Below are positions 622-61,316 of a DNA stretch of 64,000 nucleotides, piece after piece. The notes beneath the pieces are model-generated. The model searched no databases. It was not told the origin of the DNA and worked only from the letters and a program-made list of their open reading frames with translations. A program made the translations under genes and the position numbers. Source of the stretch: Candidatus Peregrinibacteria bacterium GW2011_GWC2_39_14 (GTDB lineage: Bacteria; Patescibacteriota; Gracilibacteria; UBA1369; UBA12463). The DNA lies in assembly GCA_000993595.1 (NCBI GenBank), contig LBWJ01000007.1, positions 32,172 to 96,171 of the forward strand, read 5' to 3'. How positions within the stretch are numbered: position 1 is the stretch's first letter; each line of letters opens with the position of its first letter.

Positions 622-966
622 CTAAAATTTTAGTCCGCCTTCTCTGGCACCTTCTGCCATTGATTTTACTCTACCGTGATATTTGTATCCAGCTCTATCG
701 AAAACACATTCTGTTATGCCTTTTTCGATTGCTTTTTTTGCGAGTTCCATGCCGACTTTTTTTGCTCCATCAGCTTTTTTTGCTGATTTTTCTTTCATAT
801 TTCCGGCGTTTACGATTGTTTTCTTGCTCTCATCGTCAACGAGTTGAGCATATGTATATTTATTGCTTCTGAATATAACGAGTCTCGGGCATTTTTCCGT
901 ACCTCTAATTTTTTTAGAGATTCTTAGGTGTCTTATTTTTCTTGCTGCAATTTTAGTAGTTGTCAT
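622..966 (-). CDS. rplR: 50S ribosomal protein L18
   Basis: 114 aa. RLVIFRSNKYTYAQLVDD and FDRAGYKYHGRVKSMAEGAREGGLKF are L18 hallmarks. Lies between rplF and rpsE. Confidence 0.95.
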   Translation of the reverse strand: MTTTKIAARKIRHLRISKKIRGTEKCPRLVIFRSNKYTYAQLVDDESKKTIVNAGNMKEKSAKKADGAKKVGMELAKKAIEKGITECVFDRAGYKYHGRVKSMAEGAREGGLKF

Positions 967-984
967 TGTAGTTTATTTATTGAT

Positions 985-1012
985 GTCGCTTCGCGACGTT
1001 TTATTTATATTT
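985..1012 (-). repeat. Intercistronic hairpin element, module B only (rplF to rplR spacer)
   Basis: GTCGC-TTC-GCGAC hairpin (985-997) followed by GTTTTATTTATAT (plus-strand reading). Confidence 0.7.
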
Positions 1013-1019
1013 GCTTGTG

Positions 1020-1577
1020 TTACTTTGCTCCGCCACTTGCGCCAGCAACTGTTTTACCGGCTTTTTTCTTGATGATTTCACCTTCATATCTGATTCCTTT
1101 TCCCTTGTATGGTTCAGGCTTTTTGAGGCTTCTTAGCTTTGCGGCGAATTCACCGACTAATTGCTTATCAAAACCTTTTATCGAAATTATGTTTTTCTTT
1201 TCTTTATCAATGTCAACCACCAGTCCTTCTGGTGTTGTTACATTTACAGGATGAGAGAAGCCAAGGCTTAATTCAAGGTCTTTTCCTTTTAATATAGCCT
1301 TAAAACCAACTCCTTGAACGTCGAGCTTTTTTTCAAATCCTTTCGTGACACCTTCTATCATGTTTGCTAAAAGAGTTCGAATTGTTCCATGAAGATTTTT
1401 GAACGTATCGCTTTTTCTTGTCACCGTGATCACGCCATCTTTCACTTCAAGTTCTATTCCAAATGGAATATTAAGGGAAAGTTCATTTTTTGCTCCTTTA
1501 ATTTTTACGAGTGATCCTGTAACTTGCACTGTTACTCCTTGTGGTACTTGGACTGGTTTTTTTCCTATTCGTGACAT
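1020..1577 (-). CDS. rplF: 50S ribosomal protein L6
   Basis: 185 aa. MSRIGKKPVQVPQGV ... KGKGIRYEGE. Correct operon position. Confidence 0.95.
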   Translation of the reverse strand: MSRIGKKPVQVPQGVTVQVTGSLVKIKGAKNELSLNIPFGIELEVKDGVITVTRKSDTFKNLHGTIRTLLANMIEGVTKGFEKKLDVQGVGFKAILKGKDLELSLGFSHPVNVTTPEGLVVDIDKEKKNIISIKGFDKQLVGEFAAKLRSLKKPEPYKGKGIRYEGEIIKKKAGKTVAGASGGAK

Positions 1578-1620
1578 AATGTTTTTAATTTACAATTTAC
1601 AATATTACAATTTACAAACT

Positions 1621-2004
1621 TTAACGAATTTCACATAATAATTCTCCACCAATGTTAAGTTTTCTGGCTTCTTCGCCGGTCATAACGCCTTTTGACGTTG
1701 ATATGATGGCGATTCCAAAGCCGCTTTTAACTTTTTTAATTTCGTCTTTTCCAACGTATATTCTTTGTCCGAGCTTGCTTACTCTCTTTACTGACAATTC
1801 ATGAGCCCCTTCTTTCAATGTTATTTTGAGCTCAGGAAACTGTTTGTCGGATATTTTTTCCACTTTTTCAACAAAGCCGTGTTTTGCAATGATATTTGCC
1901 ATGTTCTCTTTGATTTTTGAATATGGAACATTTACAGTGCTGTGTCGCGCTTTCATTGCGTTCTTTATTCTAATCAATAAGTCTGCTATTGGGTCTGTGT
2001 GCAT
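1621..2004 (-). CDS. rpsH: 30S ribosomal protein S8
   Basis: 127 aa. TDPIADLLIRIKNA ... STSKGVMTGEEARKLNIGGELLCEI. Confidence 0.95.
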   Translation of the reverse strand: MHTDPIADLLIRIKNAMKARHSTVNVPYSKIKENMANIIAKHGFVEKVEKISDKQFPELKITLKEGAHELSVKRVSKLGQRIYVGKDEIKKVKSGFGIAIISTSKGVMTGEEARKLNIGGELLCEIR

Positions 2005-2023
2005 ATTATTTTATTTATAGTTA

Positions 2024-2038
2024 GGGCCGTTGGCCTGG
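2024..2038 (-). repeat. Intercistronic hairpin element, short module A (rpsN to rpsH spacer)
   Basis: GGGCC-GTT-GGCC, followed on the plus strand by TGG and then the TTA complement of the rpsN stop. The transcript reads UAA-CCAGGCC-AAC-GGCCC. Confidence 0.5.
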
Positions 2039-2263
2039 TTACCAAGATGATTTTTTAATACCTGGGAGTGCTCCTTTGCTGGCGTGTTCTCTAAAGCAAA
2101 TTCTGCACATTTCGAATTTTCCCATATATGAACCTACTCTTCCGCATAATTTGCATCGATTGTATACGCGTGTCGGGAATTTTGGCTTTTTGCCGGCTTC
2201 CAAGGCTTTCATTAACGCCTTTTGTCCTCTTATTGTTTTTACTTTTAGTGCTGTTCTTGCCAT
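2039..2263 (-). CDS. rpsN: 30S ribosomal protein S14, zinc-ribbon form
   Basis: 74 aa. CKLCGR...CRICFRE (CxxC-x12-CxxC), ending GIKKSSW. Lies between rplE and rpsH. Confidence 0.9.
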
Positions 2264-2285
2264 TTTGTTATGTTATTTAGTTGGT

Positions 2286-2343
2286 GTCGCTTCGCGACGT
2301 TTTAATTTATATGGGCCTGTGTTCGCCTTTGGCGAACGGCCTG
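2286..2343 (-). repeat. Intercistronic bipartite hairpin element, full copy (rplE to rpsN spacer)
   Basis: The transcript reads UAA-CAGGCC-GUUCGCC-AAA-GGCGAAC-ACAGGCCC-AUAUAAAUUAAAAC-GUCGC-GAA-GCGAC. Confidence 0.8.
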
Positions 2344-2988
2344 TTATTTTGCCATTTCGGCTCTTTCTCTTCCTGTTAATGCGAGTTCTGTCATTTCTTC
2401 TTTGCCTCCCGCTCCTTTTTTCTTTTTTAATTCAGCGTCTTTCTTGAAAGGGAAGTGCATTGCGTCCAACAATGCTCGTGTGTGTTCTTTATTTTTAGCT
2501 GTTGTCGTTATTGTTATTTGAAGGCCGTGAACTTTTGTAAGGTCTTCTACTCCTATTTCCGGGAATACCGTGTGTTCTTTAAGCCCAAGGTTATAAGCTC
2601 CGCGTTCGTCGAAAGCTGTTGTTGAGATGCCTCGGAAATCGCGTACGCGTGGGAGGGTGATGTTGATTAATTTTGTTAAGAAATCATACATTCTTTTTCC
2701 TCTAAGCGTTACCTTTATTCCAACGACTTGTCCTTGTTTTGTCTTAAAGTTCGAGATTGATTTATTCGTTTTGACAGCAATTGGTTTTTGACCCGTGATA
2801 GCCGCAATATTGTTCATTACGTCTGTGTGGTCTTTTCCGCCTTTTGTCATGTATGAACCAATTCCAACGTTAACTGTTATTTTCGTTATTTTTGGTACGG
2901 CCATAACGTTTTTAATTCCAAGTTTTTCTTTTAATGCCGGAATAACTTCTTTCAAATATCTTGTTTTTAGGTCTTCTGTTGTGCTCAT
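2344..2988 (-). CDS. rplE: 50S ribosomal protein L5 with a charged C-terminal tail
   Basis: 214 aa. The core PKITKITVNVGIG ... NLGLKEHTVFPEI matches L5. About 35 extra Lys/Glu-rich residues follow at the C terminus. Confidence 0.93.
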   Translation of the reverse strand: MSTTEDLKTRYLKEVIPALKEKLGIKNVMAVPKITKITVNVGIGSYMTKGGKDHTDVMNNIAAITGQKPIAVKTNKSISNFKTKQGQVVGIKVTLRGKRMYDFLTKLINITLPRVRDFRGISTTAFDERGAYNLGLKEHTVFPEIGVEDLTKVHGLQITITTTAKNKEHTRALLDAMHFPFKKDAELKKKKGAGGKEEMTELALTGRERAEMAK

Positions 2989-3341
2989 GATTGTTTCTTA
3001 GTTTTTTTAGATTTAATTGCTGAGCTATCGAATTTTTGGTCGACAGACTCTTTGCATAATTTGCATATTCTTGACTTTGTTTTTCCTTCTGTTTTGTATT
3101 CAACGCGAGCTGGCTTTGAGCAGTGTGGGCAGAGGATCATTGCGTTTGATACATCGAAGAATGTTTCATATCTTACCTTGTCACCTTTGCTGGTTTTCGT
3201 TTTCTTGATGTGCTTTGTTATAAGATTTAACTTTTCAACTGCGATTTTTTTGCGTTTTTGATCGACACGGATTACTTTTCCGCTTTTACCGCGATCTTTT
3301 CCTACAATAAGGAGCACGTTGTCTGATATTTTGATTTTCAT
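2985..3341 (-). CDS. rplX: 50S ribosomal protein L24 (Cys4-containing variant)
   Basis: 118 aa. KOW motif [14 protein letters not shown]. 4-nt ATGA overlaps with both rplN and rplE. The C-terminal half carries CPHC-x18-CKLC. Confidence 0.9.
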
Positions 3342-3709
3342 AGTACTTCTGGCGCTAAAGAAATAATTTTTTGAAACGATGGGTTATCGCGTAATTCTCT
3401 TGCAACCGGTCCAAATACGCGAGTTCCCTTTGGCATAAGGTCTTTTCCTATGATAACGATTGCATTATCATCGAATTTTATATATGTGCCGTCCGGTCTT
3501 CTCGTATTGTTTCTTACTCTGATGACGACGGCTCTTTCAACGGATTTCTTTTTTACGATTCCTCTTGGTGAGGCTTGTTTTACTGTAACAACCACTATAT
3601 CTCCAAGTCTTGCCCATCTTTTTCCCGTTCCACCCATTGGCTGGATGCAAGTTGCCATTTTGGCTCCGGTATTATCTGCGACGACTAAATGTGATCTAAG
3701 TTGTATCAT
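3338..3709 (-). CDS. rplN: 50S ribosomal protein L14
   Basis: 123 aa. [17 protein letters not shown] ... FGPVARELR. Confidence 0.96.
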
Positions 3710-3710
3710 G

Positions 3711-3944
3711 TTATTTTGATTGTGGTTTAACGACTGTCCAATTCTTTAATTTGCTTAGCGGACGAGTTTCATAAATTGTTACTTTATCTCCCATTTTGTA
3801 TTGTCCTTCAGGACTGTCGGCATAGAATTTCTTTGATGTTTTATATCTTTTCTTATATTTAGGATGAGCTTTATATGTATCAACTTTTACAACAATTGTT
3901 TTTTGCATCTTATCGCTCACGACTGTTCCTTCTTTTGTTCTCAT
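3711..3944 (-). CDS. rpsQ: 30S ribosomal protein S17
   Basis: 77 aa. [27 protein letters not shown]. Correct operon position. Confidence 0.93.
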
Positions 3945-3965
3945 ATATAATTATTTTAAGTTGTG

Positions 3966-3985
3966 TTTGTCTCCGACAAACGACT
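3966..3985 (-). repeat. Module B-like hairpin (rpmC to rpsQ spacer)
   Basis: TTTGTC-TCC-GACAAA (6-bp stem, 3-nt loop) with the same position and flank (CGACTTTATTTA) as module B elsewhere. Confidence 0.5.
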
Positions 3986-4207
3986 TTATTTAGATGTAGC
4001 TGTTCGCTGTGCTCCAGCTGTGTTAACGTTTTTTAGTATTGTGATGACTCTTGCGACATATTTTTTTGTATCTTCAACTCTTTGATGATTCTTTGATTGT
4101 CCGGTGCGTGATTCAAACCTGTATTTCATCAGGCTTGTTTTGCCTTCTTTTAAGGCTTTTTCAAGCTGTTCCTTCTTCATCTTTTTTAATTCTTCTGTTG
4201 TATACAT
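3986..4207 (-). CDS. rpmC: 50S ribosomal protein L29
   Basis: 73 aa helical protein (ELKKMKKEQLEKALKEGKTSLMKYRF) in the slot between rplP and rpsQ. Confidence 0.85.
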   Translation of the reverse strand: MYTTEELKKMKKEQLEKALKEGKTSLMKYRFESRTGQSKNHQRVEDTKKYVARVITILKNVNTAGAQRTATSK

Positions 4208-4212
4208 ATTGT

Positions 4213-4635
4213 TTAAATGAGCTTGTTCTTATTAATAAATTTGCATTTTACAGGTAGTTTTTGAGTTGCGAGATATATTGCTTCTTTTGCTTCCGCTTCT
4301 GTGATTCCTTCGAGTTCGAATATGATTTTTCCGGCTTGTACTTCAGCGCAGAAGAATTCCGGTGTACCTTTTCCCGCTCCCATTGGGACTTCAGCCGCTT
4401 TCTTTGTGATGATCTTATCCGGGAATATTCTAATCCATATTTTTCCACCTTTTTTCGTGAATCTTGCCATAGCCTTTCTTGCGGCTTCGATTTGTCTTGC
4501 CGAGATTTCACCGGCTGAGATTGCTTTTAGTCCAAATGTTCCAAATGCCATCTTTGTTCCTCTTTGCGCCGGACCCCTAAGGCTTCCGCGATTTCTAAAC
4601 TGTTTTCTATGTTTTGTCTTTTTTGGTTGTAACAC
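4213..4635 (-). CDS. rplP: 50S ribosomal protein L16
   Basis: 140 aa with a GTG start. MLQPKKTKHRKQFRNRG ... GKIWIRIFPDK ... PMGAGKG. Confidence 0.95.
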   Translation of the reverse strand: MLQPKKTKHRKQFRNRGSLRGPAQRGTKMAFGTFGLKAISAGEISARQIEAARKAMARFTKKGGKIWIRIFPDKIITKKAAEVPMGAGKGTPEFFCAEVQAGKIIFELEGITEAEAKEAIYLATQKLPVKCKFINKNKLI

Positions 4636-4636
4636 T

Positions 4637-5293
4637 TTACATTTGGTTAAGTTTCTCTAGGTCTTTCTTGAATATATCTCCTTTGTATACCCAAACTTTT
4701 AATCCGATGATTCCGTATGTTGTTAGGGCAGGGACGTATGCATATTCAATATTTGCTCTGAATGTTTGAAGTGGGAGTTTTCCTTTGATGAAAAGTTCAT
4801 TTCTTGCGATTTCAACTCCATTTAAGCGACCTGAAGCATAAACTTTGACTCCAAGCGCTCCTGCATCCATTGCTTTTTCTAAAGCCATTTTTGCAGCTCT
4901 TCTATATGAAATTCTTTTTTCAACTTGTTGAGCAATCGATTCTGCAATTAAGCGTGCGTCTGTTGCAGGTTGTCTGATTTCTTTTATTTCAATTCCAAAT
5001 TTTTCATTAAATTTCTTTTCAAGTTCTGCGCGGAGTTCTTCGATCATTTCACCTTGATGTCCAATGATTGTGCCCGGTTTTGCCGTATAGATAACAAGTG
5101 TAACTTTTGTTGGGCTTCTCAAGATCTCTATTCTTGAAATAGCGTTTTCCTTAAGCCTTTTTTCGAGGTATTTTTTTACCTCAATGTCTTTGTGGAGCAG
5201 GGTAGAATATGATTTTTTTGTAGCAAACCATTTAGAGTCCCAGCTCTTTGTTATTCCTATTCTAATGATGTTTGGATTTACTTTTTGACCCAT
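4637..5293 (-). CDS. rpsC: 30S ribosomal protein S3
   Basis: 218 aa. MGQKVNPNIIRIGITKSWDSKWF with KH-domain pattern. Confidence 0.96.
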   Translation of the reverse strand: MGQKVNPNIIRIGITKSWDSKWFATKKSYSTLLHKDIEVKKYLEKRLKENAISRIEILRSPTKVTLVIYTAKPGTIIGHQGEMIEELRAELEKKFNEKFGIEIKEIRQPATDARLIAESIAQQVEKRISYRRAAKMALEKAMDAGALGVKVYASGRLNGVEIARNELFIKGKLPLQTFRANIEYAYVPALTTYGIIGLKVWVYKGDIFKKDLEKLNQM

Positions 5294-5294
5294 T

Positions 5295-5708
5295 TTATGT
5301 TGTTACAGTTTTTTTAGTGGTTTTTTTGACGGCTTTTTCCGTTTTTTCTGCTTTTTCAATTTTCTTTTCCGGTGCGGCTGTTTCTCTGACTTTTAATTCG
5401 ATTCTTAAGTGTGACATTTTTTTGATGATCGGATTTGCTCTTCCTCTTGAAGCGGGGATAAATCTTTTGAATTTAGGGCCATCGCTTACATAGATTGAAC
5501 TTATATATAGATTTTCTTTCTTTTGCTTGAGGTTGTTTTCTGCATTTGATGACGCTGATACCAATGATTTTCTGATTAAGTCTGCCGCTTTTTTTGGCAT
5601 GTATTTTAACAATGCGAGTGCTTCAACTACGTTTTTTTCTCTTACTATTCCCGCAACGAGTTCAAGTTTCTTTGGTGCTATTCTGATAAATTTTGTTACT
5701 GACCTCAT
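5295..5708 (-). CDS. rplV: 50S ribosomal protein L22 with a K/E/T-rich tail
   Basis: 137 aa. FIRIAPKKLELVAGIVREKNV ... GRANPIIKKMSHLRIEL, followed by a low-complexity tail. Confidence 0.92.
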   Translation of the reverse strand: MRSVTKFIRIAPKKLELVAGIVREKNVVEALALLKYMPKKAADLIRKSLVSASSNAENNLKQKKENLYISSIYVSDGPKFKRFIPASRGRANPIIKKMSHLRIELKVRETAAPEKKIEKAEKTEKAVKKTTKKTVTT

Positions 5709-5736
5709 TTTTTATTCTTTTAATTGATTGTTTATG

Positions 5737-6045
5737 CTACTTTGCCGCTCCGGTATCTTTACTGTCTGTACCTGTTAATCTTGCGAGTTTACCACCATGT
5801 CCTTTGAATTTTCTTGTAGGAGAGAATTCTCCGAGCTTGTGGCCTACCATTTGTTCTGTGATATATACAGGGATGTGCTGTTTTCCGTTGTGTACTGCGA
5901 TTGTGTGACCTACAAATTCAGGAGAGATGTCGCAGTTTCTTGCCCATGTTTTGATTGGTTTTTTATCTCCAGATGCGTTTATCTTTTCAATCTTTTTCAC
6001 CAGCTTCTGGTCGATAAATGGTCCTTTTTTTAAGCTTCTGCTCAT
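5737..6045 (-). CDS. rpsS: 30S ribosomal protein S19
   Basis: 102 aa. [11 protein letters not shown] ... [33 protein letters not shown]. Confidence 0.96.
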
Positions 6046-6066
6046 AGTGTACTGTTTTTTAGTTGT

Positions 6067-6126
6067 GTTGCCTTCGGCAACGTTTTGTTTATATGGGCCT
6101 TGCGCTTACGGCGCGGCCTGGCGTGG
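6067..6126 (-). repeat. Intercistronic bipartite hairpin element, full copy (rplB to rpsS spacer)
   Basis: Module B GTTGCC-TTC-GGCAAC (6067-6081), linker GTTTTGTTTATAT, and module A GGGCC..GCGC-TTACG-GCGC..GGCC (6095-6118), ending at the rplB stop. Confidence 0.75.
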
Positions 6127-6969
6127 TTATTTATTCCTTGTAGGTCTTTTTTTGATAATCCATTTTGTGCTGTATTTCTTGCGATCTCTTGTTTTGTAAC
6201 CATTGGCTGGCTTGCCCCAAGGTGTGCGTGGGCCTGTAAGACCGATTGGTTGTGCGCCTTCACCACCACCATGTGGATGTTCAACCGGGTTCATGGCTTT
6301 ACCTCTGACGGTTGGTCTCCATCCCATGTGACGCTTTCGTCCGGCTTTTCCAAGGCTTACATTTGAATGGTCGACGTTGGAAACAACTCCGATTGTTGCA
6401 AAACATTCTTTTGGAATCATTCTTACTTCTCCTGAAGGAAGTTGGACTTGTGCCATTTTTCCTTCGAGAGAAACGAGTTTTCCGCTTGAACCTGCTGATT
6501 TGATCATTTGTCCGCCTTTTCCCGGAACTAGTTCAAGGTTGAATATTGAATAACCGATTGGTATGTGGCTTAATGTCATTCTATTTCCGGATTGCACTCT
6601 TGCTTTGATTTTTGTGACGATGACATCGCCGACTTTTGCGCCTTCCGGTGCTAAGTTATAGCGTTTTTCGCCGTCTGTATAACAAACAAGCATAATGAAT
6701 GATGATCTTCCCGGATCATATTCAATCGTTTTGATCGTTGCTGAAATATTCATCTTATCTGTTTGGTTGAAATCAACCATTCTATATTGTTTGATGTAGC
6801 CGCCGCCTTGGTGTCTGATCGTGAGCTTGCCGGAGTTATTGCGACCCGCGTGTTTCTTTAGCCTTTTTAAGAGTCTTTTTACAGGATTGATTGTCGTAAC
6901 TTCCTCATATGTGAGGCCTGTCATGAGTCTTCTTCCCGGGCTTGTCGGTCTGTAGGTTTTAATCGGCAT
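6127..6969 (-). CDS. rplB: 50S ribosomal protein L2
   Basis: 280 aa. MNPVEHPHGGGEGAQPIGLTGPRTPWGKPA. Confidence 0.97.
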   Translation of the reverse strand: MPIKTYRPTSPGRRLMTGLTYEEVTTINPVKRLLKRLKKHAGRNNSGKLTIRHQGGGYIKQYRMVDFNQTDKMNISATIKTIEYDPGRSSFIMLVCYTDGEKRYNLAPEGAKVGDVIVTKIKARVQSGNRMTLSHIPIGYSIFNLELVPGKGGQMIKSAGSSGKLVSLEGKMAQVQLPSGEVRMIPKECFATIGVVSNVDHSNVSLGKAGRKRHMGWRPTVRGKAMNPVEHPHGGGEGAQPIGLTGPRTPWGKPANGYKTRDRKKYSTKWIIKKRPTRNK

Positions 6970-19026: not shown

Positions 19027-19126
19027 TTTTTGTGTGGTTAATTGTTAATTTTATATATAAATTTTTTTTGCGAACTTGATTTTATCCAAATTTCCGTGCC
19101 AATGCAAGCCCAAATTGATTATTGGT

Positions 19127-19219
19127 GTCGCTTCGCGACAGGTTTATTTATATCGACCTGTGCGTTTATTTTATATAGACCTGTGTTCTGCTTTGCAGAA
19201 CGGTCTGGCGAGCGGTCTG
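19127..19219 (-). repeat. Intercistronic bipartite hairpin element with a partial internal duplication (fusA to tuf spacer)
   Basis: Module B GTCGC-TTC-GCGAC (19127-19139). The linker plus a GACCTGTG fragment occurs twice. Module A AGACC-TGT-GTTCTGC-TTT-GCAGAAC-GGTCT (19187-19206) is followed by an extra GCGAGCGGTCTG before the fusA stop. Confidence 0.75.
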
Positions 19220-21322
19220 TTATTTCGCTTTCACTCCTGTTTTGTCTGCAATGATTTTTTCAGTGACATTGTTTGGAGCTTTGTCATATTTTCCGAATTC
19301 CATTGAGTAGCTTGCGCGACCTTGTGTCATAGAGCGAAGATCTGTTGCATATCCAAACATGGATGCGAGTGGAACGTATGCTCTGATGAATTTTGCCATA
19401 CCGCGATCTCCACTTTCATAGATTTGGCCTCTTCTTGCGCTCAAATCTCCCATTACGTCTCCAAAATATTGCTCAGGAGTGACTGCTTCAACTTTCATGA
19501 TTGGCTCAAGAATGCATGGATTTGCTCTTTTTGCACCGTTTTGAAAGCCAAGAGAAGCGGCGATTTTGAAGGACATTTCAGACGAGTCAACATCGTGGTA
19601 AGAGCCATCGATGAGCTCAACTTTGACATCCACAACAGGGAATCCTGCGAGAATACCTCTATTAAGAGCTTCTTCAACACCTTTTTTGATTGCAGGGACG
19701 AATTCTTTTGGAACTTTTCCACCAACGATGGAATCTTCGAATTCAAATCCTTTACCTGCTTCATTTGGGATGAGCTTGAATACAACGTGACCATATTGAC
19801 CATGACCACCTGTTTGTTTGACGTATTTTTCTTCGTGTTCGATTTCTTTTTGAATTGTTTCTCGGTAAGCAACTTGAGGCGCGCCGACATTAGCTTCGAC
19901 TTTGAATTCACGTCTTAAGCGGTCAACGATGATATCAAGGTGAAGTTCGCCCATACCTCCAATGACTGTTTGAGAAGTTTCTTCATCAAATCTGACCCGG
20001 AACGTTGGATCTTCTTCTGCGAGTTTTTGAAGAGCAAGTGAGATCTTTTCCTGATCGGCTTTTGTTTTTGGCTCAATTGCGATGTGGATAACAGGTTCCG
20101 GGAAGTTGATTGTTTCAAGTCTGATCGGATGAGCTTCATCGCAAAGTGTGTGGCCTGTTAATGTTTTCTTTAAGCCAATAATTGCGGCAATGTCTCCGGC
20201 TTTTGCTTCCTGAATTTCTTCTCTTGTATTTGAGTGCATACGGACTAAGCGGCTGATTCTTTCTTCATCTCTTGTGACCGAGTTGAAAACGCGGCTACCG
20301 GAAGTGATTTTGCCGGAATAAACGCGGAAATATGCGAGTCTTCCAACAAATGGGTCTGTTGCAATTTTGAATACGAGTGATGAAAATGGTTCTGTGTCTT
20401 TTGGTGAACGCAATTCTTCTTGTTCAGTATATGGATTCATGCCTTTCGTAGGAGGAAGCTCAAGAGGGGATGGAAGATATTCGATAACCGCATCAAGCAT
20501 AAGCTGTACGCCCATGTTTTGAAGAGCGCTTCCGCAAAGTACGGGATATAACTTATCCGCAACAGTGCCTTTTCTTAAGCCGAATTTGATTTCTTCATTT
20601 GTTAATTCTTGTCCTTCAATATATTTTTGCATAAGGCCATCATCGCATTCTGAAGCCTTTTCGATCATTGTATGTCTGAATTTTTCAACTTGTTCTTTCA
20701 TGTCATCCGGAATAGGAATTTCTGTTTTGATTTCTCCGTTTTTGCCTTCAAATCTATAAGCTTTTCTTGTGATGAGATCAATGATTCCACTGAATGTGCC
20801 TTCCGCTCCGATTGGGAGTTGGATTGCAACAGCGTCTTTGCTTAATCTTTCGTGAATGGAATCAAGGCTCATATAAAAGTCTCCACCCATTTTATCCATC
20901 TTATTGACGAATGCTAAGCGTGGAACATTGTATTTATCCGCTTGTCTCCAAACCGTTTCAGATTGAGGTTCGACACCTTGTGATCCGTCGAAAACGACGC
21001 ATCCGCCATCAAGAACTCTTAGCGAGCGTTCAACTTCAGCTGTAAAGTCAACGTGGCCGGGAGTATCAATTAAGTTGATACGATAATCATTCCAGAAACA
21101 AGTTGTGGCTGCTGATGTGATCGTGATGCCACGTTCTCGTTCTTGTTCCATCCAGTCCATAGTTGCGGCGCCATCGTGAACTTCACCTATTTTATAGTTT
21201 CTACCTGTATAAAATAAGACGCGTTCTGAAACTGTTGTTTTTCCTGCGTCAATGTGTGCGATGATTCCTATGTTTCTGTATTTATCCAGCGAAACTTGTT
21301 TAAAATCTTCTTGTTGTGCCAT
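19220..21322 (-). CDS. fusA: Elongation factor G
   Basis: 700 aa. [21 protein letters not shown]. The str-operon order rpsL-rpsG-fusA-tuf is kept. Confidence 0.98.
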
Positions 21323-21401
21323 ATTTTGTTGTGTTTAGTTAAAATAAGAAAGTGTAGAAGAGATTCTCTATAAAAGGCATAAATACGAAATAAGAAAGAA
21401 G

Positions 21402-21433
21402 AGAACGTGCGTTCCTTGCGGAACTTCCGTTCT
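21402..21433 (-). repeat. Long nested hairpin directly after the rpsG stop
   Basis: AGAACG-TGC-GTTCC-TTGC-GGAAC-TTC-CGTTCT. Its sequence is unrelated to modules A and B but its placement is the same. Confidence 0.5.
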
Positions 21434-21438
21434 GCTGC

Positions 21439-21894: not shown

Positions 21895-21927
21895 GTTTGT
21901 TAGAAATTAGTAATTAAAAATTAGAGA

Positions 21928-22341
21928 TTATGCTTTTGGTTTCTTTTGGCCGTATCTTGAGCGGCTTTGTTTTCTGTTTTGTACGCCTTGAGCATCAAGA
22001 CTTCCGCGAACAATGTGATATCCGACACCCGGCAAGTCTTTTACGCGACCTCCGCGGACAAGAACGATTGAGTGTTCCTGAAGATTGTGTCCTTCTCCTG
22101 GAATGTATGCAACAACTTCTGTGCCATTTACCAATCTAACTTTTGCGATTTTACGCAAGGCGGAGTTTGGTTTTTTTGGCGTCATTGTCGTTACCTTGAG
22201 ACAAATGCCTCTTTTAAAAGGCGACATTAAAGGAGTTTTTTTATTCTTCAAGCTATTCCATGTTCCGAATAACGCAGGAGAGCTGCTCCTTTTTGAAGGT
22301 TTTCTTCTTGGCTTCTTTATCAGTTGATTTATTGTTGACAT
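21928..22341 (-). CDS. rpsL: 30S ribosomal protein S12
   Basis: 137 aa. [17 protein letters not shown] ... [30 protein letters not shown]. Confidence 0.97.
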
Positions 22342-22404: not shown

Positions 22405-22593
22405 TTCTGGTTTAATTTTCAAGATTCAATTTACAATTTACATTCAGTTATCAATTTTCAAGATTTTAATTTTCAGTTAATGCTTTGAATTTTCGCTATA
22501 GCTTGACGTTTTTTGGCTTTTTGACTAGGTTTTTGTTAATTGATAATTGTTTATTGAAAATTGATTGTAAATTGAAATATTGTAAATTGTAAA
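22405..22593. repeat. AT-rich degenerate short-repeat spacer (rpoC to rpsL)
   Basis: AATTTTCAAGATT occurs twice (22413, 22452). Also CAATTTACAATTTACATTCAG and TTGTAAATTGAAATATTGTAAATTGTAAATT. Related strings occur at 1586-1620, 8640-8790 and 26563-26666. Confidence 0.6.
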
Positions 22594-26562: not shown

Positions 26563-26666
26563 TTTTAAAGTTTACAATTTACGAATTTATAATTTACATT
26601 CAATTTTTAATTTTCAATTATCAAGTTTCAATAGGATCTTTGACAGCATTGCTTATTGATAATTGA
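26563..26666. repeat. AT-rich degenerate short-repeat spacer (rpoB to rpoC)
   Basis: TTTACAATTTACGAATTTATAATTTACATTCAATTTTTAATTTTCAATTATCAAGTTTCAAT. It shares ATTTACATTCAATTTT with 8660-8680. Confidence 0.6.
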
Positions 26667-34130: not shown

Positions 34131-35078
34131 TTATGTTCCTGCGTTTTTCCCTGCGTAGTGCTCTGCCACCCACTTATCTACTTTAAGCCATTTTTCACTG
34201 GTTTTATCCGCTTCAAGTTTTATTTTCCAGTTTTCAGGTGGCTGATTTTCGTTTTCAATCAGGCCTGCGTGAGCGAGTCTTTCATGAGGCTTGCAAAGAG
34301 GAATGAGGGTATCGGGATCATGTGTTTTTGTGAGCGCAAACCTCCATGTGTGATGAAGGTATTTATATTCTTTCGTGCATCCCGGGAATGCGCATGTGTT
34401 GTTTGTTTTAGCGAGTACGTATTTTTCGATTTTTGCAGGTACGTATCTTTTTGCATTTTCTTGCGGAATTGGCTTTTTGGCTTCAACTCGCGCTTGATAG
34501 GCTTGCAGAAGTTTTTGCATGAGTTCGTTCCAATTTCCTTGGCCTTTGAGTTTTTGAAGTTGTTCGGCTGTTTCCGGACTTAAATCCATTGTTATTTGTT
34601 CGACACTTAAATCAGAGAATAAAGTTTGATTTTCGTAATAATTTTTTGAGTCGGCGCAAGGGGAACCAAGCTCAGATTTTTTGTATTCTTTTGCATATGC
34701 TGCCAGCGTGTTTTTACTCATTCCCATAGCTTTTTCCGCCCAAAATGCTGCAGTTTCAGGAGTTGCAATATTTGCGATTGGACGAATTATTTCGATGCCT
34801 TTTTCTTCAACAACGCGTTTTAACTCTGGTTTGTCTTCAATTTTTCGCATTGCCCAAAGAGCGACATTAACCGATGCATTATTTATCCCGGCCAGTTTTG
34901 CTGCGTATTCATAAATACTGCTGAATCCTTTTTTCTCCCAAATTCTATATTTTGCTATTTCCGGCAAAAGGATTGTGCATTTTCTTTTCCATTTGAGTGC
35001 ATTTTTGCCATAAAAAGTAAATTTTTCGTGAAGATCTTTTTCGAGAATTTTTTGTGTGTTTTGCGCTACGTTTGTCAT
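34131..35078 (-). CDS. HNH endonuclease domain protein
   Basis: The C-terminal sequence CAFPGCTKEYKYLHHTWRFALTKTHDPDTLIPLCKPHERLAHAGLI fits the HNH pattern (H-N/H-H with flanking Cys). The ORF-track TTG start at 35120 is replaced by the ATG at 35078 (MTNVAQN). Confidence 0.75.
   Translation of the reverse strand: MTNVAQNTQKILEKDLHEKFTFYGKNALKWKRKCTILLPEIAKYRIWEKKGFSSIYEYAAKLAGINNASVNVALWAMRKIEDKPELKRVVEEKGIEIIRPIANIATPETAAFWAEKAMGMSKNTLAAYAKEYKKSELGSPCADSKNYYENQTLFSDLSVEQITMDLSPETAEQLQKLKGQGNWNELMQKLLQAYQARVEAKKPIPQENAKRYVPAKIEKYVLAKTNNTCAFPGCTKEYKYLHHTWRFALTKTHDPDTLIPLCKPHERLAHAGLIENENQPPENWKIKLEADKTSEKWLKVDKWVAEHYAGKNAGT
34615..34690 (-). repeat. Segment of the HNH gene that has a diverged copy at 44215-44290
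   Basis: TTGATTTTCGTAATAATTTTTTGAGTCGGCGCAAGGGGA..CTCAGATTTT here matches TTGATTTTTGTAATAATTTTTTGAGTTGGCGCAAGGGGA..CTCAGATTTT at the other site. I estimate about 85 percent identity by eye. Confidence 0.75.
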
Positions 35079-38073: not shown

Positions 38074-38114
38074 TTTAATTTATATATAGACCTGTGCTGC
38101 TTCGCAGCGGTCTG
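38074..38114 (-). repeat. Module A hairpin plus AUAUAAAU linker in the dnaK 5' UTR
   Basis: AGACC-TGT-GCTGC-TTC-GCAGC-GGTCT (38088-38113) directly abuts CIRCE. The linker TTTAATTTATATAT lies on the dnaK side. Confidence 0.7.
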
Positions 38115-38141
38115 TTAGCACTCAGAATTATAGAGTGCTAA
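38115..38141 (-). promoter_or_regulatory. CIRCE operator (HrcA binding site) upstream of dnaK
   Basis: TTAGCACTC-N9-GAGTGCTAA, a perfect match to the CIRCE consensus inverted repeat. Confidence 0.9.
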
Positions 38142-38155
38142 ATTTAAGTCGTCAA
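38127..38155 (-). promoter_or_regulatory. dnaK promoter with its -10 box inside the CIRCE loop
   Basis: Minus strand TTGACG (38155-38150), 17-nt spacer, TATAAT (38132-38127). The TATAAT falls within the 9-nt CIRCE spacer. Confidence 0.65.
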
Positions 38156-39931: not shown

Positions 39932-39932
39932 A
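38934..39932 (+). CDS. IS30 family transposase
   Basis: N-terminal HTH (ISIEEREKIQEMLWQKKSVRQIAKALNRSPSSISREI). DDE triad context GDWEGDSV ... TLDNGPEN ... HSWERGTNENTNSLIRQYFPKKTDF. The ORF-track GTG at 38907 lies inside the left inverted repeat, so I prefer the ATG at 38934. Confidence 0.9.
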   Translation: MQYTHISIEEREKIQEMLWQKKSVRQIAKALNRSPSSISREIFRNQSRLKQLYRPRIAQDRADMHKKYRGREKRLKNEIIRSYVISKLRERWSPEQISGRLRIDHPEQAISHEAIYQYVYAQIHRDGYGYLRPECEDLRIYLRRRRKRRVHKGYRKCSRTSLIRGRSINVRPAVVNERIRVGDWEGDSVASVSNKTGINTLVERKIGYLMMTKLKNKTGKATTNVVSKRLSILPEKLRLTLTLDNGPENQDWQTIEERIRITCYHANPYHSWERGTNENTNSLIRQYFPKKTDFGMISDEQIKRVETFLNNRPRKRLNYKTPLEAMSVALES

Positions 39933-57431: not shown

Positions 57432-60400
57432 CTACTTTTTTATAGGTTTTGGAGAGATAGTAGGTTTACTTATGGAGTCGCTTTGCGACGTTTTATTCGT
57501 ATTGGCCTGTGCTTCGCTTTGCGCAGCGGCCTGTTCTCGCTGATATAATAGCGCTGCGTATTCATCATAAGGGTCTTTGATTGGATTTTCAAAATAATCA
57601 GTTCCAATTTCAATCAAAATGTCGGCATTGCTTTGGAATGGAGGCTCTGTGTATTCAATAGGAATTGCGTTTGAAGTTTTGCCCGGAATTAATTCTTGCA
57701 AGAGGCTTACAAAATCTTTATCAACAGTATCTTTAATGTAATAAGTGGTTTTTTTGACGGTATTTGTTTTTGCGTTGCCAAACCTAACAACGTTTAAGCA
57801 ATATCTCGTGAAAAGAGATTTTAATTTTGTTGCGGTAGGATAAACCGTACCGTTTAAAATTTGTATTCGATAGTCTTTGTGTGCTAATTTTGCGTTATTT
57901 AAAACCAAATCGACTGTTTTTTGCATGTGTGTATATTTGTTTCCGGCAGGAATCAAAACATACGCGCCTCCATATAATTCTTTGTCGCCCGGAACAAGCC
58001 ATCCACCGCATAATGAAGGGTCGTCGCTGAATTCGTATGATTTAATGACTTGAGTGCTTCCCATCTCTGAAGCGATTTTTACGAGTGTGATTATTTCTCT
58101 TGTAGTTAAGCTTGTTTCTATGTTGTTTTTTAATGATAGAAATATGTCTTCGATTTTACTTTCATCAAAGTTTTCTTTTTTATTTAAGACTTTGTCTTTG
58201 ATGGCGTTTATTATTAATCTTTGTCTTTTATCTCGATCAAAGACGCTTGTTGATTGACGTGATCTTGCGTATTTTAAGGCTAATTCGCCATCCATGTGGT
58301 GCCAGCCAGCATCAACATGTAAAAGTTCATACCCGGTTGTTCCCGCCTTTGGATACATTGGGTCATCAAGGGTTGTATCAACGTAAACATCGATGCCACC
58401 GATTGAATCTATCATTTTCTCAAATCCTGAAAAATCTATTTTTGCATAATAATGGATTGGGATTCCCATAAGCTCTTCAACTGCGGTTTTTGTTATATCC
58501 AAGGCTTTTTCGGAATCTTTATAGTAAGCTTTTGAATACACATAAACTGCATTTACTTTTTCACCCCCAAAGTTATTTCCGATGTCTTTTACTTTTACGA
58601 ATACGTCTCTTGGCAAAGAAAAGAGACTTGTGATTTTGCTCTCTTCGTCAATGCTGGCGATTAACATTGTGTCCGTTAGATCAGCTCCGTCATGCACTCC
58701 GCCGCCAATTCCCATTAATAGTATATTTGTGTGGTTGTATGAATCTGTATCCAGTTTTTCGCCAAAAAAGAAGACGACATTTGTGACACTGACGTTAAAT
58801 ATCAGTTTTAATAAAAAGAAAAATATAAATATTGCCAAAAATATTTTTACTCCTTGTTTGATATAACTTAAAAGGAGAGAGGATTTTTTTTCCATGTGAT
58901 TGTTATTGTAGTTTTTTTTGCTCGTTACGTCAAAATAATTGTTAGCTTTATTTCGCCGAGAGTTGTTATTCGTTATTTGTTTGTTTATATTTTCATTTAG
59001 ATAATTTGTCGTGTTTTGCGAATATATAAATAGCTTGATTGTTTGGCTTGATACAAGCTTTTTAACATCATCTTGAAGTGATTCTCCCGTGTTTGGAGAC
59101 GTGAAGGCCGTGAAGTTGCTTTGCGCCATTTTATCGCTCCATGACGCCGCAATTACAGATAGGTTTGTGTCTGAAATTAAATCTGAAAGTCCGGCGGCTT
59201 GTCTTTTTGTGTTGATGTAAGACAGGAGTTCGTTTGTTAATCGTGGTATGTCTTGTAAAGTTAGTGGGTTTTTTGAGAATTCTTCGGTAATTAAGATTAA
59301 TCCTTGTGCATCTTTTGTGAATCCAAAGCCAACTTTTGTCCAATCGGTATATAAAACATTTTTTCTGTGCGATGGACTGCGCATAAAGCCTTCAAATCCT
59401 TCCGCCAAGCTTGATACACGTGCTATGTTTTCTCCAACTTCAGTTGAAATATTGAGTGCGATTCTTCTGTCATTTGGAGTTTGCCCTTGCAGATTTATAT
59501 GGCTGAAATATGCATTTTTTGCCATGTCGTCCGAGTGTTTTTGTGCGAGTTCATTAAGCTTTGTGTCCACTGAAACAGCTTGTAGTCCAAGATTTTGACG
59601 TGCCGTGTTTGTCCAGTTTATAAATTTATTTTGCGCGTCTGTAATGGTTGTGTCCGGATTTGAATCTATTTTTTCAATATCTGAAAAGTCAGGCAAGAAG
59701 GGGATTCCTGTGCCAATGTAGATTGGAGTATTTATTACTGTTTCGCCTCCAACTTCGCTTATTCCAAGAACATATGTTCCACTTGTGGTTGGCGTGTATG
59801 ACAAGGCATATTGACTACCTTTCTTAAAAGCGTTTTCTCCGTTTACAAGCATTGGGCTTGAAGGAGAGGTTATATTTAAGCTTTCAACTGTTCCATTTGG
59901 TTTTATGATGTGTGCTTCTTCAAGAATGTCTGTGTTTGTTATTCCGGATATTATTATTTGTCGTGCAAAGGGGATGGTTGTTTGCAAGCCGGAAGATGAT
60001 ATTTTCGTTTGATTATTTTTTTCAAAAAGATGGCGTATTGCCAAGAATGTTGTTTCTGAGGCTGTGCCGTTATTATCGATTACCATGCGAACTGTTCCCG
60101 GGCTGAATTTATAAAAATCTTCAAAGAAAATTTCAAAGTTATCTTCTTTTTGTCTGACTATGTAATAAAAAGAATTTGTATTTTGTGAGAATGTGATTTT
60201 CGTGGTGGTTTTTTCGTCTTTATTTAGCGGTATATAGGTTTTATTGCCGGATGAATATATTCTTGGGGCTATTGCTGAACCTGCTTGTTCTCCTGAATTT
60301 ACCGATGGAGTTGAATCTAAAACCGATATGTTTACAACTTTGCTTGATCCTTGAGTTCCGGGGATTATTCCGATTAAATAATTTCCCGGATATCTGAATA

Positions 60401-61316
60401 TAACCGGAATTTCGAAGCTTCCGTTTTCAACTTTTACGCTGAATTCAATGCTTTTGTCGTTATTGTAAGCGTCTTTATATGATAAGAATGCAAAAATTGT
60501 GCTGAATGTGCCGCTTGTTATTGTTCCTTTGAATTTATAAACTTCATTTTTATAAAAGATTGTTTGGAAATCTGAATCCAAAGTTATTCCATCAAAAAAG
60601 TTTTTATTTATTGTTGAAAATGCAACCGGACTTTGCGCTTGCATTTGCGGAATTGTTGGTGTGATTATTGGCTTAAAGACGTCATTTACTGTGGATATTG
60701 TTGTTGGTGTTGTCGGTGCGTTTTGGACTTTTACGATTTTGAATATTTCTTGCTTGGACGTTCTATAAATAATTTCAGAAGTGAGTCCGCGTGTTATTGG
60801 AATATTTGGATTAAAAACATTTTCATCTATTAGATATTTTTGTTGTGCGAAATTTGAATATGGCAAATACCATTCGCCGGACGTGCTTACGATTTTCCAT
60901 TTTTGAGCGATCCCGATTATTTTGAGCGCTTCCGCTTGATTTATGGGTTGTGCGGGTCTGAACGTTCCGTCCTTATATCCCGTAATGATTCCTTCTGAAG
61001 CGGCCTTTTTTACATATGGTGTATACCAAGCATTTTCCGGTACGTCTTTAAATGAAATGCTTGAGGTGGAATTTAAATCATATCCGGAGCTTAGAACTAT
61101 TATTTTCAAGAATTCCGCTCTTGAGACAGGATTATCCGGCTTAAAAGTTCCGTCCTCATATCCTTTAATTATGTTATAAGATTCGAGGTAATTTATTGCA
61201 TCTGAATATGGGTTCGTGGCTTGTATGTCTGCAAAAAATGCATATGTTGTTTGTGGTGCCGTGAATGTGACCAGCAAACAAGCTATCGCTAAAATTATTG
61301 ATGATATTTTGCGCAT
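57432..61316 (-). CDS. Composite envelope protein: signal peptide, SLH repeats, CAP/SCP domain(s), TM helix, LytR-CpsA-Psr (LCP) domain
   Basis: 1294 aa. SLH motifs (FADIQATNPYSDAINYLESYNIIKGYEDGTFKP; FKDVPENAWYTPYVKKAASEGIITGYKDGTFRP). CAP motifs (AQKHSDDMAKNAYFSHIN...FMRSPSHRKNVL). An internal MEKKSSLLLSYIKQGVKIFLAIFIFFFLL TM segment is followed by LCP motifs (NILLMGIGGG...DTMLIASID...FSLPRDVFV). This may be two genes fused; see findings. Confidence 0.8.
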   Translation of the reverse strand: MRKISSIILAIACLLVTFTAPQTTYAFFADIQATNPYSDAINYLESYNIIKGYEDGTFKPDNPVSRAEFLKIIVLSSGYDLNSTSSISFKDVPENAWYTPYVKKAASEGIITGYKDGTFRPAQPINQAEALKIIGIAQKWKIVSTSGEWYLPYSNFAQQKYLIDENVFNPNIPITRGLTSEIIYRTSKQEIFKIVKVQNAPTTPTTISTVNDVFKPIITPTIPQMQAQSPVAFSTINKNFFDGITLDSDFQTIFYKNEVYKFKGTITSGTFSTIFAFLSYKDAYNNDKSIEFSVKVENGSFEIPVIFRYPGNYLIGIIPGTQGSSKVVNISVLDSTPSVNSGEQAGSAIAPRIYSSGNKTYIPLNKDEKTTTKITFSQNTNSFYYIVRQKEDNFEIFFEDFYKFSPGTVRMVIDNNGTASETTFLAIRHLFEKNNQTKISSSGLQTTIPFARQIIISGITNTDILEEAHIIKPNGTVESLNITSPSSPMLVNGENAFKKGSQYALSYTPTTSGTYVLGISEVGGETVINTPIYIGTGIPFLPDFSDIEKIDSNPDTTITDAQNKFINWTNTARQNLGLQAVSVDTKLNELAQKHSDDMAKNAYFSHINLQGQTPNDRRIALNISTEVGENIARVSSLAEGFEGFMRSPSHRKNVLYTDWTKVGFGFTKDAQGLILITEEFSKNPLTLQDIPRLTNELLSYINTKRQAAGLSDLISDTNLSVIAASWSDKMAQSNFTAFTSPNTGESLQDDVKKLVSSQTIKLFIYSQNTTNYLNENINKQITNNNSRRNKANNYFDVTSKKNYNNNHMEKKSSLLLSYIKQGVKIFLAIFIFFFLLKLIFNVSVTNVVFFFGEKLDTDSYNHTNILLMGIGGGVHDGADLTDTMLIASIDEESKITSLFSLPRDVFVKVKDIGNNFGGEKVNAVYVYSKAYYKDSEKALDITKTAVEELMGIPIHYYAKIDFSGFEKMIDSIGGIDVYVDTTLDDPMYPKAGTTGYELLHVDAGWHHMDGELALKYARSRQSTSVFDRDKRQRLIINAIKDKVLNKKENFDESKIEDIFLSLKNNIETSLTTREIITLVKIASEMGSTQVIKSYEFSDDPSLCGGWLVPGDKELYGGAYVLIPAGNKYTHMQKTVDLVLNNAKLAHKDYRIQILNGTVYPTATKLKSLFTRYCLNVVRFGNAKTNTVKKTTYYIKDTVDKDFVSLLQELIPGKTSNAIPIEYTEPPFQSNADILIEIGTDYFENPIKDPYDEYAALLYQREQAAAQSEAQANTNKTSQSDSISKPTISPKPIKK
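57477..57536 (-). repeat. Full bipartite hairpin element embedded in the 3' end of ORF 57432-61316
   Basis: Module B GTCGC-TTT-GCGAC (57477-57489), linker GTTTTATTCGTAT, module A GGCC-TGT-GCTTCGC-TTT-GCGCAGC-GGCC (57504-57531), then CTGTTC where other copies have CTGTTA (the stop complement). Confidence 0.75.

Follow-up and report, generated by a model that had tools for sequence, protein, structure and literature searches.

Repetitive extragenic palindromic (REP) sequences abut or supply stop codons and also occur inside open reading frames (ORFs) (Di Nocera et al. 2013, PMC3733652). Within them, the CGTC superfamily is characterized by a CGTC/TGTC head (variants TGTC and CCTC), a CCA-like tail and a stem of 8-9 bp that opens with A/T pairs and carries a loop of 4-5 nt; its members have been reported without a dedicated transposase, and the Rickettsia palindromic elements RPE-4 and RPE-6 are classed among them (PMC3733652). 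Here we describe a family of small hairpin elements found in a 64,000-nt stretch of DNA from Candidatus Peregrinibacteria bacterium GW2011_GWC2_39_14 (contig LBWJ01000007.1, positions 32,172 to 96,171), referred to as the window throughout. The family is real. We would give about an even chance to the reading that these are undescribed modular hairpin repeats, forming mosaics in the manner of REPs and bacterial interspersed mosaic elements (BIMEs), tolerated only in sense orientation within transcribed spacers and having probable side effects as hairpins on the mRNA.

Other small elements offer further points of comparison. The BOX elements of Streptococcus pneumoniae and the Correia or NEMIS elements of Neisseria measure 100-200 bp, and none of them is known to be limited to the sense strand ahead of start codons; among them, Correia elements are bounded by terminal inverted repeats, come with a TA duplication and are found in either orientation. 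Of the Rickettsia palindromic elements, said to go back to Ogata and colleagues in 2000, RPE-1 is reportedly 100-150 bp long and frequently intragenic. Hairpins that stabilize mRNA are known from the malE-malF REP, the puf operon, the 5' stem-loop of ompA and the RNase Y-processed gapA leader. Insertion into single-stranded sites, including the loops of hairpins and REPs, is a property of IS1397 and of the palindrome-associated transposable elements (PATEs) derived from IS200/IS605.

The elements described here are about 40-65 nt long and are built from two hairpin modules, which occur singly, both together, in tandem or nested. Module A consists of (N)NA-CA, an outer stem of 4-5 bp, an inner stem of 5-7 bp with an AAA, GCA or GAA triloop, ACA, the returning outer strand, a pyrimidine and AUAUAAAU, so that its 3' side presents an ACA bulge and then a YAUAUAAAU tail. 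Its inner hairpins open with CGTY and are followed by the ACA. Module B reads (C/U)GUCGC-GAA-GCGAC-A/U-C-C-A with a nearly invariant stem; its head is CGTC in about 11 and TGTC in about 8 of 29 copies, the GTC pairing with GAC in the stem, and its tail (ACCA, UCCA, AUCA or ACAA) is mostly ACCA or TCCA. Stems are GC-rich and 5-7 bp long, loops are nearly always 3 nt, and the distance from TATAAA(T) to the G that opens module B hardly varies, at 6-7 nt. Because MAFFT followed by RNAalifold under-called the structure on raw copies, structures were specified by hand on gap-free alignments. The covariance model R1, of module A, was made from nine gap-free copies, one T having been deleted from each of two training sequences to keep the alignment so; the second model, R2, covers the linker and module B. 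The following features of the window were assigned, with all model matches on the minus strand:

2279..2346, minus strand: full A+B element between rplE and rpsN (R1 match 2305-2346, E 7e-13; R2 match 2279-2313, E 9e-8; fold -23.5 kcal/mol, z -5.9), with outer stem GGCC at 2338-2341 and 2314-2317, inner stem GTTCGCC/GGCGAAC at 2321-2337 with AAA loop, ACA bulge at 2318-2320, stop codon TAA at 2344-2346, AU-rich linker at 2299-2313, module B hairpin at 2286-2298, ACCA at 2282-2285 and the rpsN ATG at 2263
6061..6129, minus strand: full A+B element between rplB and rpsS (R1 match 6087-6122, E 0.06; R2 match 6061-6095, E 7e-5; fold z -2.65)
19120..19222, minus strand: A+B element after the fusA stop codon at 19220-19222 (R1 match 19169-19209, E 1e-10; R2 match 19120-19154, E 3e-6)
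57470..57539, minus strand: A+B element within the 3' coding tail of ORF 57432..61316 (R1 match 57495-57536, E 2e-10; R2 match 57470-57503, E 1e-5)
978..1022, minus strand: module-B-only copy between rplF and rplR (R2 match 978-1011, E 1e-7)
38080..38117, minus strand: module-A-only copy in the dnaK 5' leader (R1 match 38080-38117, E 5e-6)
3945..3991, minus strand: weak module-A-like hairpin between rpmC and rpsQ (R1 E 0.8)
2005..2041, minus strand: minimal A-like hairpin between rpsN and rpsH, CCAGGCC-AAC-GGCCC followed by UAACUAUAAAUAAAAU (no R1 match)

In total the window holds four full copies, a single copy of module B alone and three that are module A alone or resemble it, every one on the coding strand. 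An earlier reading of the bare sequence (the original prediction) had placed the four full copies at these sites and oriented every element with transcription, and the matches of both models agree on each count. The rplB/rpsS copy has stems unlike those between rplE and rpsN (module A with GGCC/GCGC and a CGUAA loop, module B with GUUGCC-GAA-GGCAAC and an ACAA tail), and a 5' remnant, CCACGC, lies immediately 3' of the stop codon TAA (6127-6129). The element behind fusA, about 100 nt from the tuf ATG, contains an additional 5' half-copy (CAGACCGCUCGC), and its ACAGGUC-AUAUAAA tail is duplicated over 23 nt; the partial duplication claimed for 19127-19219 is recovered by Tandem Repeats Finder with period 23 and 2.0 copies. 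Between rplF and rplR a degenerate ACAAGCAAAUAUAAAU tail is followed by GUCGC-GAA-GCGAC-AUCA, and R2 confirms the partial module B copy proposed at 985-1012. Likewise, R1 confirms the module A proposed in the dnaK 5' untranslated region (38074-38114), which reads CAGACC-GCUGC-GAA-GCAGC-ACA-GGUC-UAUAUAUAAAU, begins 10 nt past the -10 box of a TTGACG-N17-TATAAT promoter (38127-38155) and leaves 17 nt between the model match and the ATG. Three weaker calls had mixed fortunes. The hairpin at 3966-3985, called module-B-like, reads AAGU-C-GUUUGUC-GGA-GACAAAC-ACA-ACUU with an AU-rich tail and has the outer stem, 7-bp inner stem, triloop and ACA bulge of module A; the supposed A-like copy at 2024-2038 is indeed a minimal A-like hairpin, although R1 does not detect it; and at 17794-17820 neither model detects a copy, the site being a different hairpin followed by a boxA-like sequence.

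Shuffled sequences do not reproduce this recurrence. The module B core GTCGCTTCGCGAC (at most 2 mismatches) has 6 matches against 0.77 expected, the linker plus module A edge TTTATATGGGCCTGTG (at most 3 mismatches) has 8 against 0.52, and none of 100 shuffles equalled either count. The two-hairpin structure holds as well: ViennaRNA folds each spacer into just these hairpins, with z from -2.7 to -5.9 for the four full copies. So does the claimed covariation. Across 27 distinct module A copies 92.4% of cells are paired, compared with 74.8% after column shuffles and only 25-42% in register-shift controls, and double-sided changes are found in 9 of the 12 pairs. Rfam 15 yields no match at gathering score over the whole window, and at E up to 5 over 900-6200 it returns a spurious lncRNA match alone (E=3). 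In the literature searched, such elements are not reported from Peregrinibacteria or from other bacteria of the candidate phyla radiation (CPR), and the family can stand as undescribed, as first supposed.

The window has a G+C content of 35-41% and carries on its minus strand, in this order, rpoB-rpoC, rpsL-rpsG-fusA-tuf-rpsJ, a 2810-aa ORF and the S10-spc ribosomal cluster; many of its gene pairs overlap (ATGA) or lie 1 nt apart. Its nearest named relatives by L5, EF-G and other proteins are metagenome-assembled genomes (MAGs) of Candidatus Peregrinibacteria or 'Gracilibacteria', and groundwater metagenome contigs encode an EF-Tu identical to its own. Judged by these affinities, the organism is an uncultivated CPR bacterium. 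A single search of the GTDB representative genomes, using a pattern of 20 bases, gave 15 loci, most of them from the Peregrinibacteria MAGs LBUS01 and JACRIA01 and the 'Gracilibacteria' MAG JBAYGM01, and a scan of JGI metagenomes gave 6 more. Loci from relatives bear L numbers here; the gyrA leader L018 (JBAYGM01), for example, is nearly identical to L015 (LBUS01). Orthologous S10-spc and str clusters were fetched from relatives for spacer comparison. Family counts refer to about 250 kb of genome fragments, comprising the window and related Peregrinibacteria loci, in which R1 finds 27 copies of module A (E<0.05) and R2 finds 29 of module B (E<0.01), all but three copies being extragenic. Its distribution appears confined to one clade of Peregrinibacteria together with related CPR bacteria from groundwater.

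When each module A match is set against greedy ORF calls, a same-strand gene follows 24 of the 25 copies. On the upstream side the neighboring gene is co-directional for 17 and divergent for 7; none of the copies lies in a convergent region, a class that supplies 27 of the 184 intergenic regions sampled. The elements were originally thought to sit right after the stop codons of highly expressed genes and perhaps to target the stop-codon context. Their constant feature is instead a same-strand start codon shortly downstream, usually 4-45 nt past the element within a full range of 4 to about 140 nt. Seven copies occupy promoter-to-ATG leaders that have no upstream stop codon. Three begin 8-18 nt past the -10 box of a strong canonical promoter (window dnaK, L023 and L009), and one copy at a related locus comes directly after the 3' end of a tRNA. 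Stop-codon abutment between cistrons arises because the spacers are tiny. Nor does the rule of highly expressed genes survive, since the dnaK copy follows a promoter and the copies of relatives follow promoters or a tRNA and precede ordinary housekeeping genes. From their translations, read by eye, we take these to be nusA, gyrA, gatB, rpmE, a proA-like gene, a beta-CASP RNase-like gene, a TrmB-type regulator and genes for membrane proteins. One further downstream gene encodes a penicillin-binding protein.

A constant place ahead of start codons is also what would be expected of a host-selected leader motif, acting as a platform for Shine-Dalgarno-independent initiation or standby, or as a site for a dedicated RNA-binding protein or RNase, and serving many cistrons at their 5' ends in organisms without Shine-Dalgarno sequences. 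This is a serious rival, if on balance an unlikely one. No Shine-Dalgarno motif was found upstream of genes anywhere in the window, where start codons are preceded by A-rich leaders. Module B ends 4-10 nt ahead of the AUG in several relatives; the unpaired ACA bulge, YAUAUAAAU, the GAA loop and ACCA are conserved while the stems covary; and tail and loop variants are genome-specific, such as UAUGGAAAU with an AAA loop in L030. Set against this are the wide range of distances to the ATG, the translation of some copies within ORFs, the nested and tandem copies with no obvious leader purpose, and a turnover that makes the motif dispensable at individual loci.

This turnover is rapid. On contig Ga0172379_10004188 (L025/L031) the encoded EF-G shares 99% identity with that of the window, and yet five spacers differ. 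From the fusA-tuf spacer of L031 about 72 nt of the window element are missing, while the next 98 nt, which include a TTGCAT-N17-TAAAAT pair resembling -35 and -10 boxes (seen by eye, under the scan threshold), are 94% identical. In the tuf-rpsJ spacer of L031 the hairpin is replaced and the boxA-like part retained, and the rpsG-fusA hairpin shows a 34-nt indel relative to the window. In L025 module B is missing from the rplB-rpsS spacer and the module A there has other stems, and the rpmC-rpsQ spacer, at 6 nt compared with 41 in the window, lacks the hairpin. The rplE-rpsN element is wholly absent from L029, whose L5 is 84% identical, as is the minimal hairpin at 2005..2041, which recurs with larger loops in L028 and L030. 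In JACRIA01 (L026) A/B modules or period-7 (CATTCTT)n arrays take up nearly all spacers of the cluster. The clusters of L027 (69% identical L5) and L033 (74% identical EF-G) contain no modules, and their spacers are compact or hold unrelated hairpins.

Copies are also found inside copies. In L026 a complete A+B unit lies exactly within the GCA triloop of a complete module A, and in L030 two tandem A+B units lie within the triloop of a UUCGCC-GCA-GGCGAA hairpin; the enclosing helices are visible in minimum-free-energy folds. By comparison with L031, the window fusA-tuf element appears to be put together by the same nesting logic. At several loci 5' half-modules stop at the loop and a fresh copy comes next, and a 30-nt core (CACGCC-GTTCGCC-GCA-GGCGAAC-ACAGG) is shared by non-orthologous loci of three genomes. 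Three copies, at two loci, are translated, both times in low-complexity C-terminal tails. One is the copy at 57477-57536, which had been taken for a spacer element behind a stop codon: it is part of ORF 57432..61316, has an in-frame GAA replacing the TAA, translates as ...EQAAAQSEAQANTNKTSQSD... and has one G.A mismatch in its inner stem. This copy (57470-57536) and its orthologue L034, from a 96% relative in which it is likewise translated, in frame and with a perfect stem, belong to the C-terminal tail of a LytR_cpsA_psr-family protein; in an 80% relative (L035) the tail is of similar length and the element is absent. In L028 an A+B unit makes up a C-terminal extension of L22.

Such untidiness invites the suggestion that the elements have neither mobility nor function, and that slippage or template switching in hypervariable AT-rich spacers leaves GC-rich hairpins that mimic a family. 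The spacers are generally unstable, with period-7 arrays coming and going, and L026 contains at 856-939 (the rplC-rplD spacer) a GACCCC-GAA-GGGGUC hairpin and ACCA-like tail that are duplicated in tandem, 41 nt at 100% identity, which suggests a very recent event. We nonetheless hold this to be the least probable of the explanations considered, as dozens of copies, drawn from six or more assemblies and metagenomes and from non-orthologous loci, share the unpaired sequences and the 30-nt core, and an orientation bias of 24 in 25 is incompatible with local slippage.

Taken together, a repeated family, mosaics, rapid turnover, nesting in loops and in-frame copies point to selfish behavior of the REP/BIME or RPE type and not to locus-specific regulators. 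The original prediction had offered a REP-like mRNA stabilizer, a site of RNase processing or a small mobile palindrome aimed at the stop-codon context. Of these, the REP-like or mobile repeat is the best supported, by module presence and absence at 99% EF-G identity, by triloop nesting, by copies within ORFs and by the core shared among non-orthologous loci; stabilizing and processing roles are putative. New copies would enter, whether inserted or brought in by ectopic recombination, at single-stranded triplets that are exposed, namely an A-ending triplet after a stop codon or a resident triloop. Within transcription units only sense copies would survive, reversed ones being expected to terminate transcription. 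Insertions may be tolerated because the A-rich tail keeps an initiation region that lacks a Shine-Dalgarno motif usable. On the mRNA, cleavage would be predicted in the AU-rich linker between the two stable hairpins, after which the upstream piece could be shielded at its 3' end by hairpin A and the downstream piece at its 5' end by hairpin B; copies close to a promoter would place a 5'-proximal hairpin on the message.

Several observations weigh against REP-like spread. Terminal inverted repeats are absent, and comparisons of filled and empty sites reveal no consistent target-site duplication. Pfam identifies no transposase and no REP-associated tyrosine transposase (RAYT) among 30 window ORFs, and tblastn with approximate queries found no match to a Y1 transposase in 346 kb of genome fragments, a weak negative given such partial genomes. 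Unlike in most REPs, the modules at a locus are always direct and sense, without inverted or head-to-head pairs, and whereas classic REPs lie at the 3' ends of co-directional and convergent genes, these elements lie at 5' ends, including those of divergent genes. The conserved unpaired nucleotides, covarying stems and genome-specific tail and loop variants could also be explained by a host-selected RNA motif, recombination or template switching might have built the nested and mosaic structures without transposition, and we infer the RNA-level effects entirely from anatomy. A bolder proposal is that of a mini mobile element of about 60 nt that inserts in exposed single-stranded triplets (the triloops of hairpins and the triplet behind a stop codon) without inverted repeats or a recognizable transposase and rewires operons by means of a portable leader, which would combine an end-protecting hairpin with an AU-rich, Shine-Dalgarno-independent initiation region. 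We think it improbable, more so than the host-selected leader motif.

Selection is the simplest explanation for the strict sense orientation: a copy in reverse would be expected to terminate transcription of the operon. On the opposite strand a terminator scan finds module B and its tail (GUCGCUUCGCGAC-GUUUUAUUUAUAU) terminator-like at every copy, with plus-strand calls at 982-1000, 2283-2301, 6065-6083 and 19126-19140 for module B and at 2320-2338 for module A. The same calls would be expected if the elements served as antisense terminators, module B with its U-rich tail (and module A more weakly) stopping antisense transcription into essential operons. In keeping with this, all three non-Watson-Crick pairs of module B are C.A in the sense strand and hence G.U in the antisense; non-canonical pairs are, however, too few for a strand test, three to none is not significant, and module A leans the opposite way with two U.G pairs on the sense strand. 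Antisense termination gives no reason for sites upstream of start codons, for nesting or for translation, convergent gene pairs, for which a terminator could be of use, have no element between them, and ordinary terminators occur elsewhere, for instance after ORF 8791.

Since the elements always point at a gene, they could alternatively be compact promoter cassettes in which YATATAAAT is the -10 box, transcription starts at the opening G of module B and hairpin A replaces or insulates the -35 region. TATAAA(T) is a good -10 hexamer, and its fixed spacing to that G would suit such a role. A sigma-70 promoter is nevertheless a poor match: beyond the -10-like TATAAA there is no -35 box and no TGn extension, unlike in the evident promoters of the organism, which are canonical (TTGACx-N17-TATAAT). 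The promoter scan makes no call within any element, though it calls canonical promoters just upstream of three copies; several copies are thus transcribed from immediately upstream, which counts against a cassette. A-only copies leave 4-22 nt from tail to ATG, and some copies lie in ORFs. We consider a promoter cassette very improbable and give antisense terminators a chance slimmer still; both are less likely than the leader motif.

The preferred reading, of REP-like repeats tolerated in sense orientation, can now be placed among the described systems. Like REPs and BIMEs (PMC3733652; Nunvar et al. 2010, PMC2817692), the elements are short, GC-rich, multicopy palindromes that are mostly extragenic and transcribed. 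They share with them mosaic units and linkers, stop-codon abutment, families specific to a species or genome, and occasional in-frame intragenic copies that encode 20-30 amino acids. The CGTC/TGTC head and CCA-type tail of module B recall the CGTC REPs in particular, whose stems of 8-9 bp and loops of 4-5 nt contrast with the 5-7 bp stems and triloops found here. Further differences from REPs are that the 'tag' is base-paired and there is no GTAG, that hairpins of two kinds are connected through a conserved AU-rich linker and that no RAYT, the gene that REPs of the GTAG type flank, was found among 30 window ORFs or in the related fragments. Given these stems, the want of inverted pairs, the 5' position and the absence from convergent regions, the family is therefore regarded as a variant of the REP kind and not as a member.

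Other likenesses are partial. As with RPEs, these would be selfish palindromes in a small, AT-rich, reduced genome, with some copies in frame and translated; compared by description alone, they differ in that the only intragenic copies are the three at two loci, others being in leaders and spacers. With BOX (boxA-B-C) and Correia/NEMIS they have in common a modular or small non-autonomous repeat at co-transcribed intergenic sites, and the RNA hairpins of BOX and Correia/NEMIS can alter the stability or processing of neighboring mRNAs. The stabilizer hairpins are similarly stable, without a U-tract, and situated between cistrons or at the transcript 5' end; here, too, an AU-rich single-stranded segment is flanked by hairpins, a classic context for cleavage by RNase E or Y and for end protection. 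Those hairpins, by contrast, are single, locus-specific and conserved with their operons, whereas the present elements are a repeated, sequence-related family with fast turnover. PATEs resemble the elements in having a hairpin near each end, short conserved outer nucleotides, no inverted terminal repeats and a strict strand bias, but differ in that no Y1 transposase was detected here, the unit is far smaller and the flanking triplets (TAA, GCA, GAA and CCA) are not one defined target.

Some simpler identities were set aside. A sense-strand terminator or attenuator is contradicted by the lack of a U-tract after either hairpin on the coding strand. Hairpin B with its ACCA might suggest a tRNA or tRNA-like structure, but ARAGORN finds no tRNA in the window and the tail varies. 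An integron attC-like or nut-like site is a poor fit, the sole boxA-like sequence being a separate site upstream of rpsJ. A miniature inverted-repeat transposable element (MITE) would have ends that are inverted repeats, unlike ACAGGCC... and ...GCGACACCA, and there is no consistent duplication; nor are the elements MITEs of the IS30 copy in the window, whose inverted repeats are unrelated to them. A phage origin found no support, as viral contigs gave no match.

The IS30-family transposase gene itself (38907-39932; NCBIfam NF033563, E 2e-74) adjoins the dnaK promoter region and has 13-nt inverted repeats at 38905-38917 and 39911-39923. The dnaK promoter, with 11 of 12 consensus matches, overlaps a perfect controlling inverted repeat of chaperone expression (CIRCE), TTAGCACTC-N9-GAGTGCTAA; hrcA is at 43406-44128 and grpE at 42900-43403. 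A 67-nt direct repeat of 87% identity occupies 34614-34680 and 44216-44282, one copy being upstream of hrcA. The boxA-like TGTTCTTTAACAA lies at 17781-17793 on the minus strand, just upstream of rpsJ (S10/NusE) and after a GC-rich hairpin at 17794-17817; it matches Escherichia coli rrn boxA at 12 of 13 positions and may be a Nus-factor site. In the rpsG-fusA spacer (21323-21438) a U-rich run comes after a hairpin of two tiers, AGAACG / GUUCC-GCAA-GGAAC / GCA bulge / CGUUCU, and the whole looks like an attenuator or terminator. ORF 8791-17223 (2810 aa, with internal 141-nt and 69-nt repeats) splits the S10 operon between rpsJ and rplC, which in a close relative is split likewise by a 2847-aa protein with NHL and TSP3 repeats.

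Period-7 AT-rich arrays, (AATTTAC)n, (TTAGAAA)n and (ATTGTAA)n, occur in window spacers at 1587-1617, 21900-21930, 22533-22595, 26571-26632 and 8644-8707, between cistrons or just upstream of -35 boxes. About 183 nt of period-7 repeats upstream of the window rpsL promoter are absent at 99% EF-G identity. In the JACRIA01 relative (CATTCTT)n arrays are present in at least 12 intercistronic spacers of the ribosomal cluster, including L026 2807-2874, 3669-3723 and 4385-4424, and (TTCTTCA)n-type repeats flank an antisense gene with bAvd / 23S-rRNA-IVP domains between rpsG and fusA (L032 3439-3807, JACRIA010000041). A module-B-like core (UAUAUAAAA-N5-6-CGUCGCGAAGCGAC-ACC) followed by period-7/8 repeats was seen at L004 6242-6276, L006 2056-2089 and L017 1880-1913, on contigs labelled Bdellovibrionales, Moraniibacteriota and Erysipelotrichaceae. 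In the Bdellovibrionales-labelled contig it is next to, and antisense to, what we take to be the 3' end of 23S rRNA. These cores may have matched by chance, may come from CPR contigs that were mis-binned or may be real but distant relatives.

Among known genomes, those of CPR bacteria rank with the smallest and most streamlined. In this clade even the most conserved operons (S10, spc and str) have been colonized and remodelled by hairpin repeats within less than 1% protein divergence. With filled and empty sites, and with copies in the loops of copies, the family amounts to a natural experiment on REP-like spread without a known transposase. The repeats can confuse gene callers by creating C-terminal extensions, and they would be useful as strain-level markers in groundwater metagenomes. 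They also bear on how polycistronic mRNAs are expressed in bacteria that do not use Shine-Dalgarno sequences. Were the mini mobile element to prove true, its spread would be rewiring the operons of CPR genomes of about 1 Mb into separately stabilized and separately initiated cistrons.

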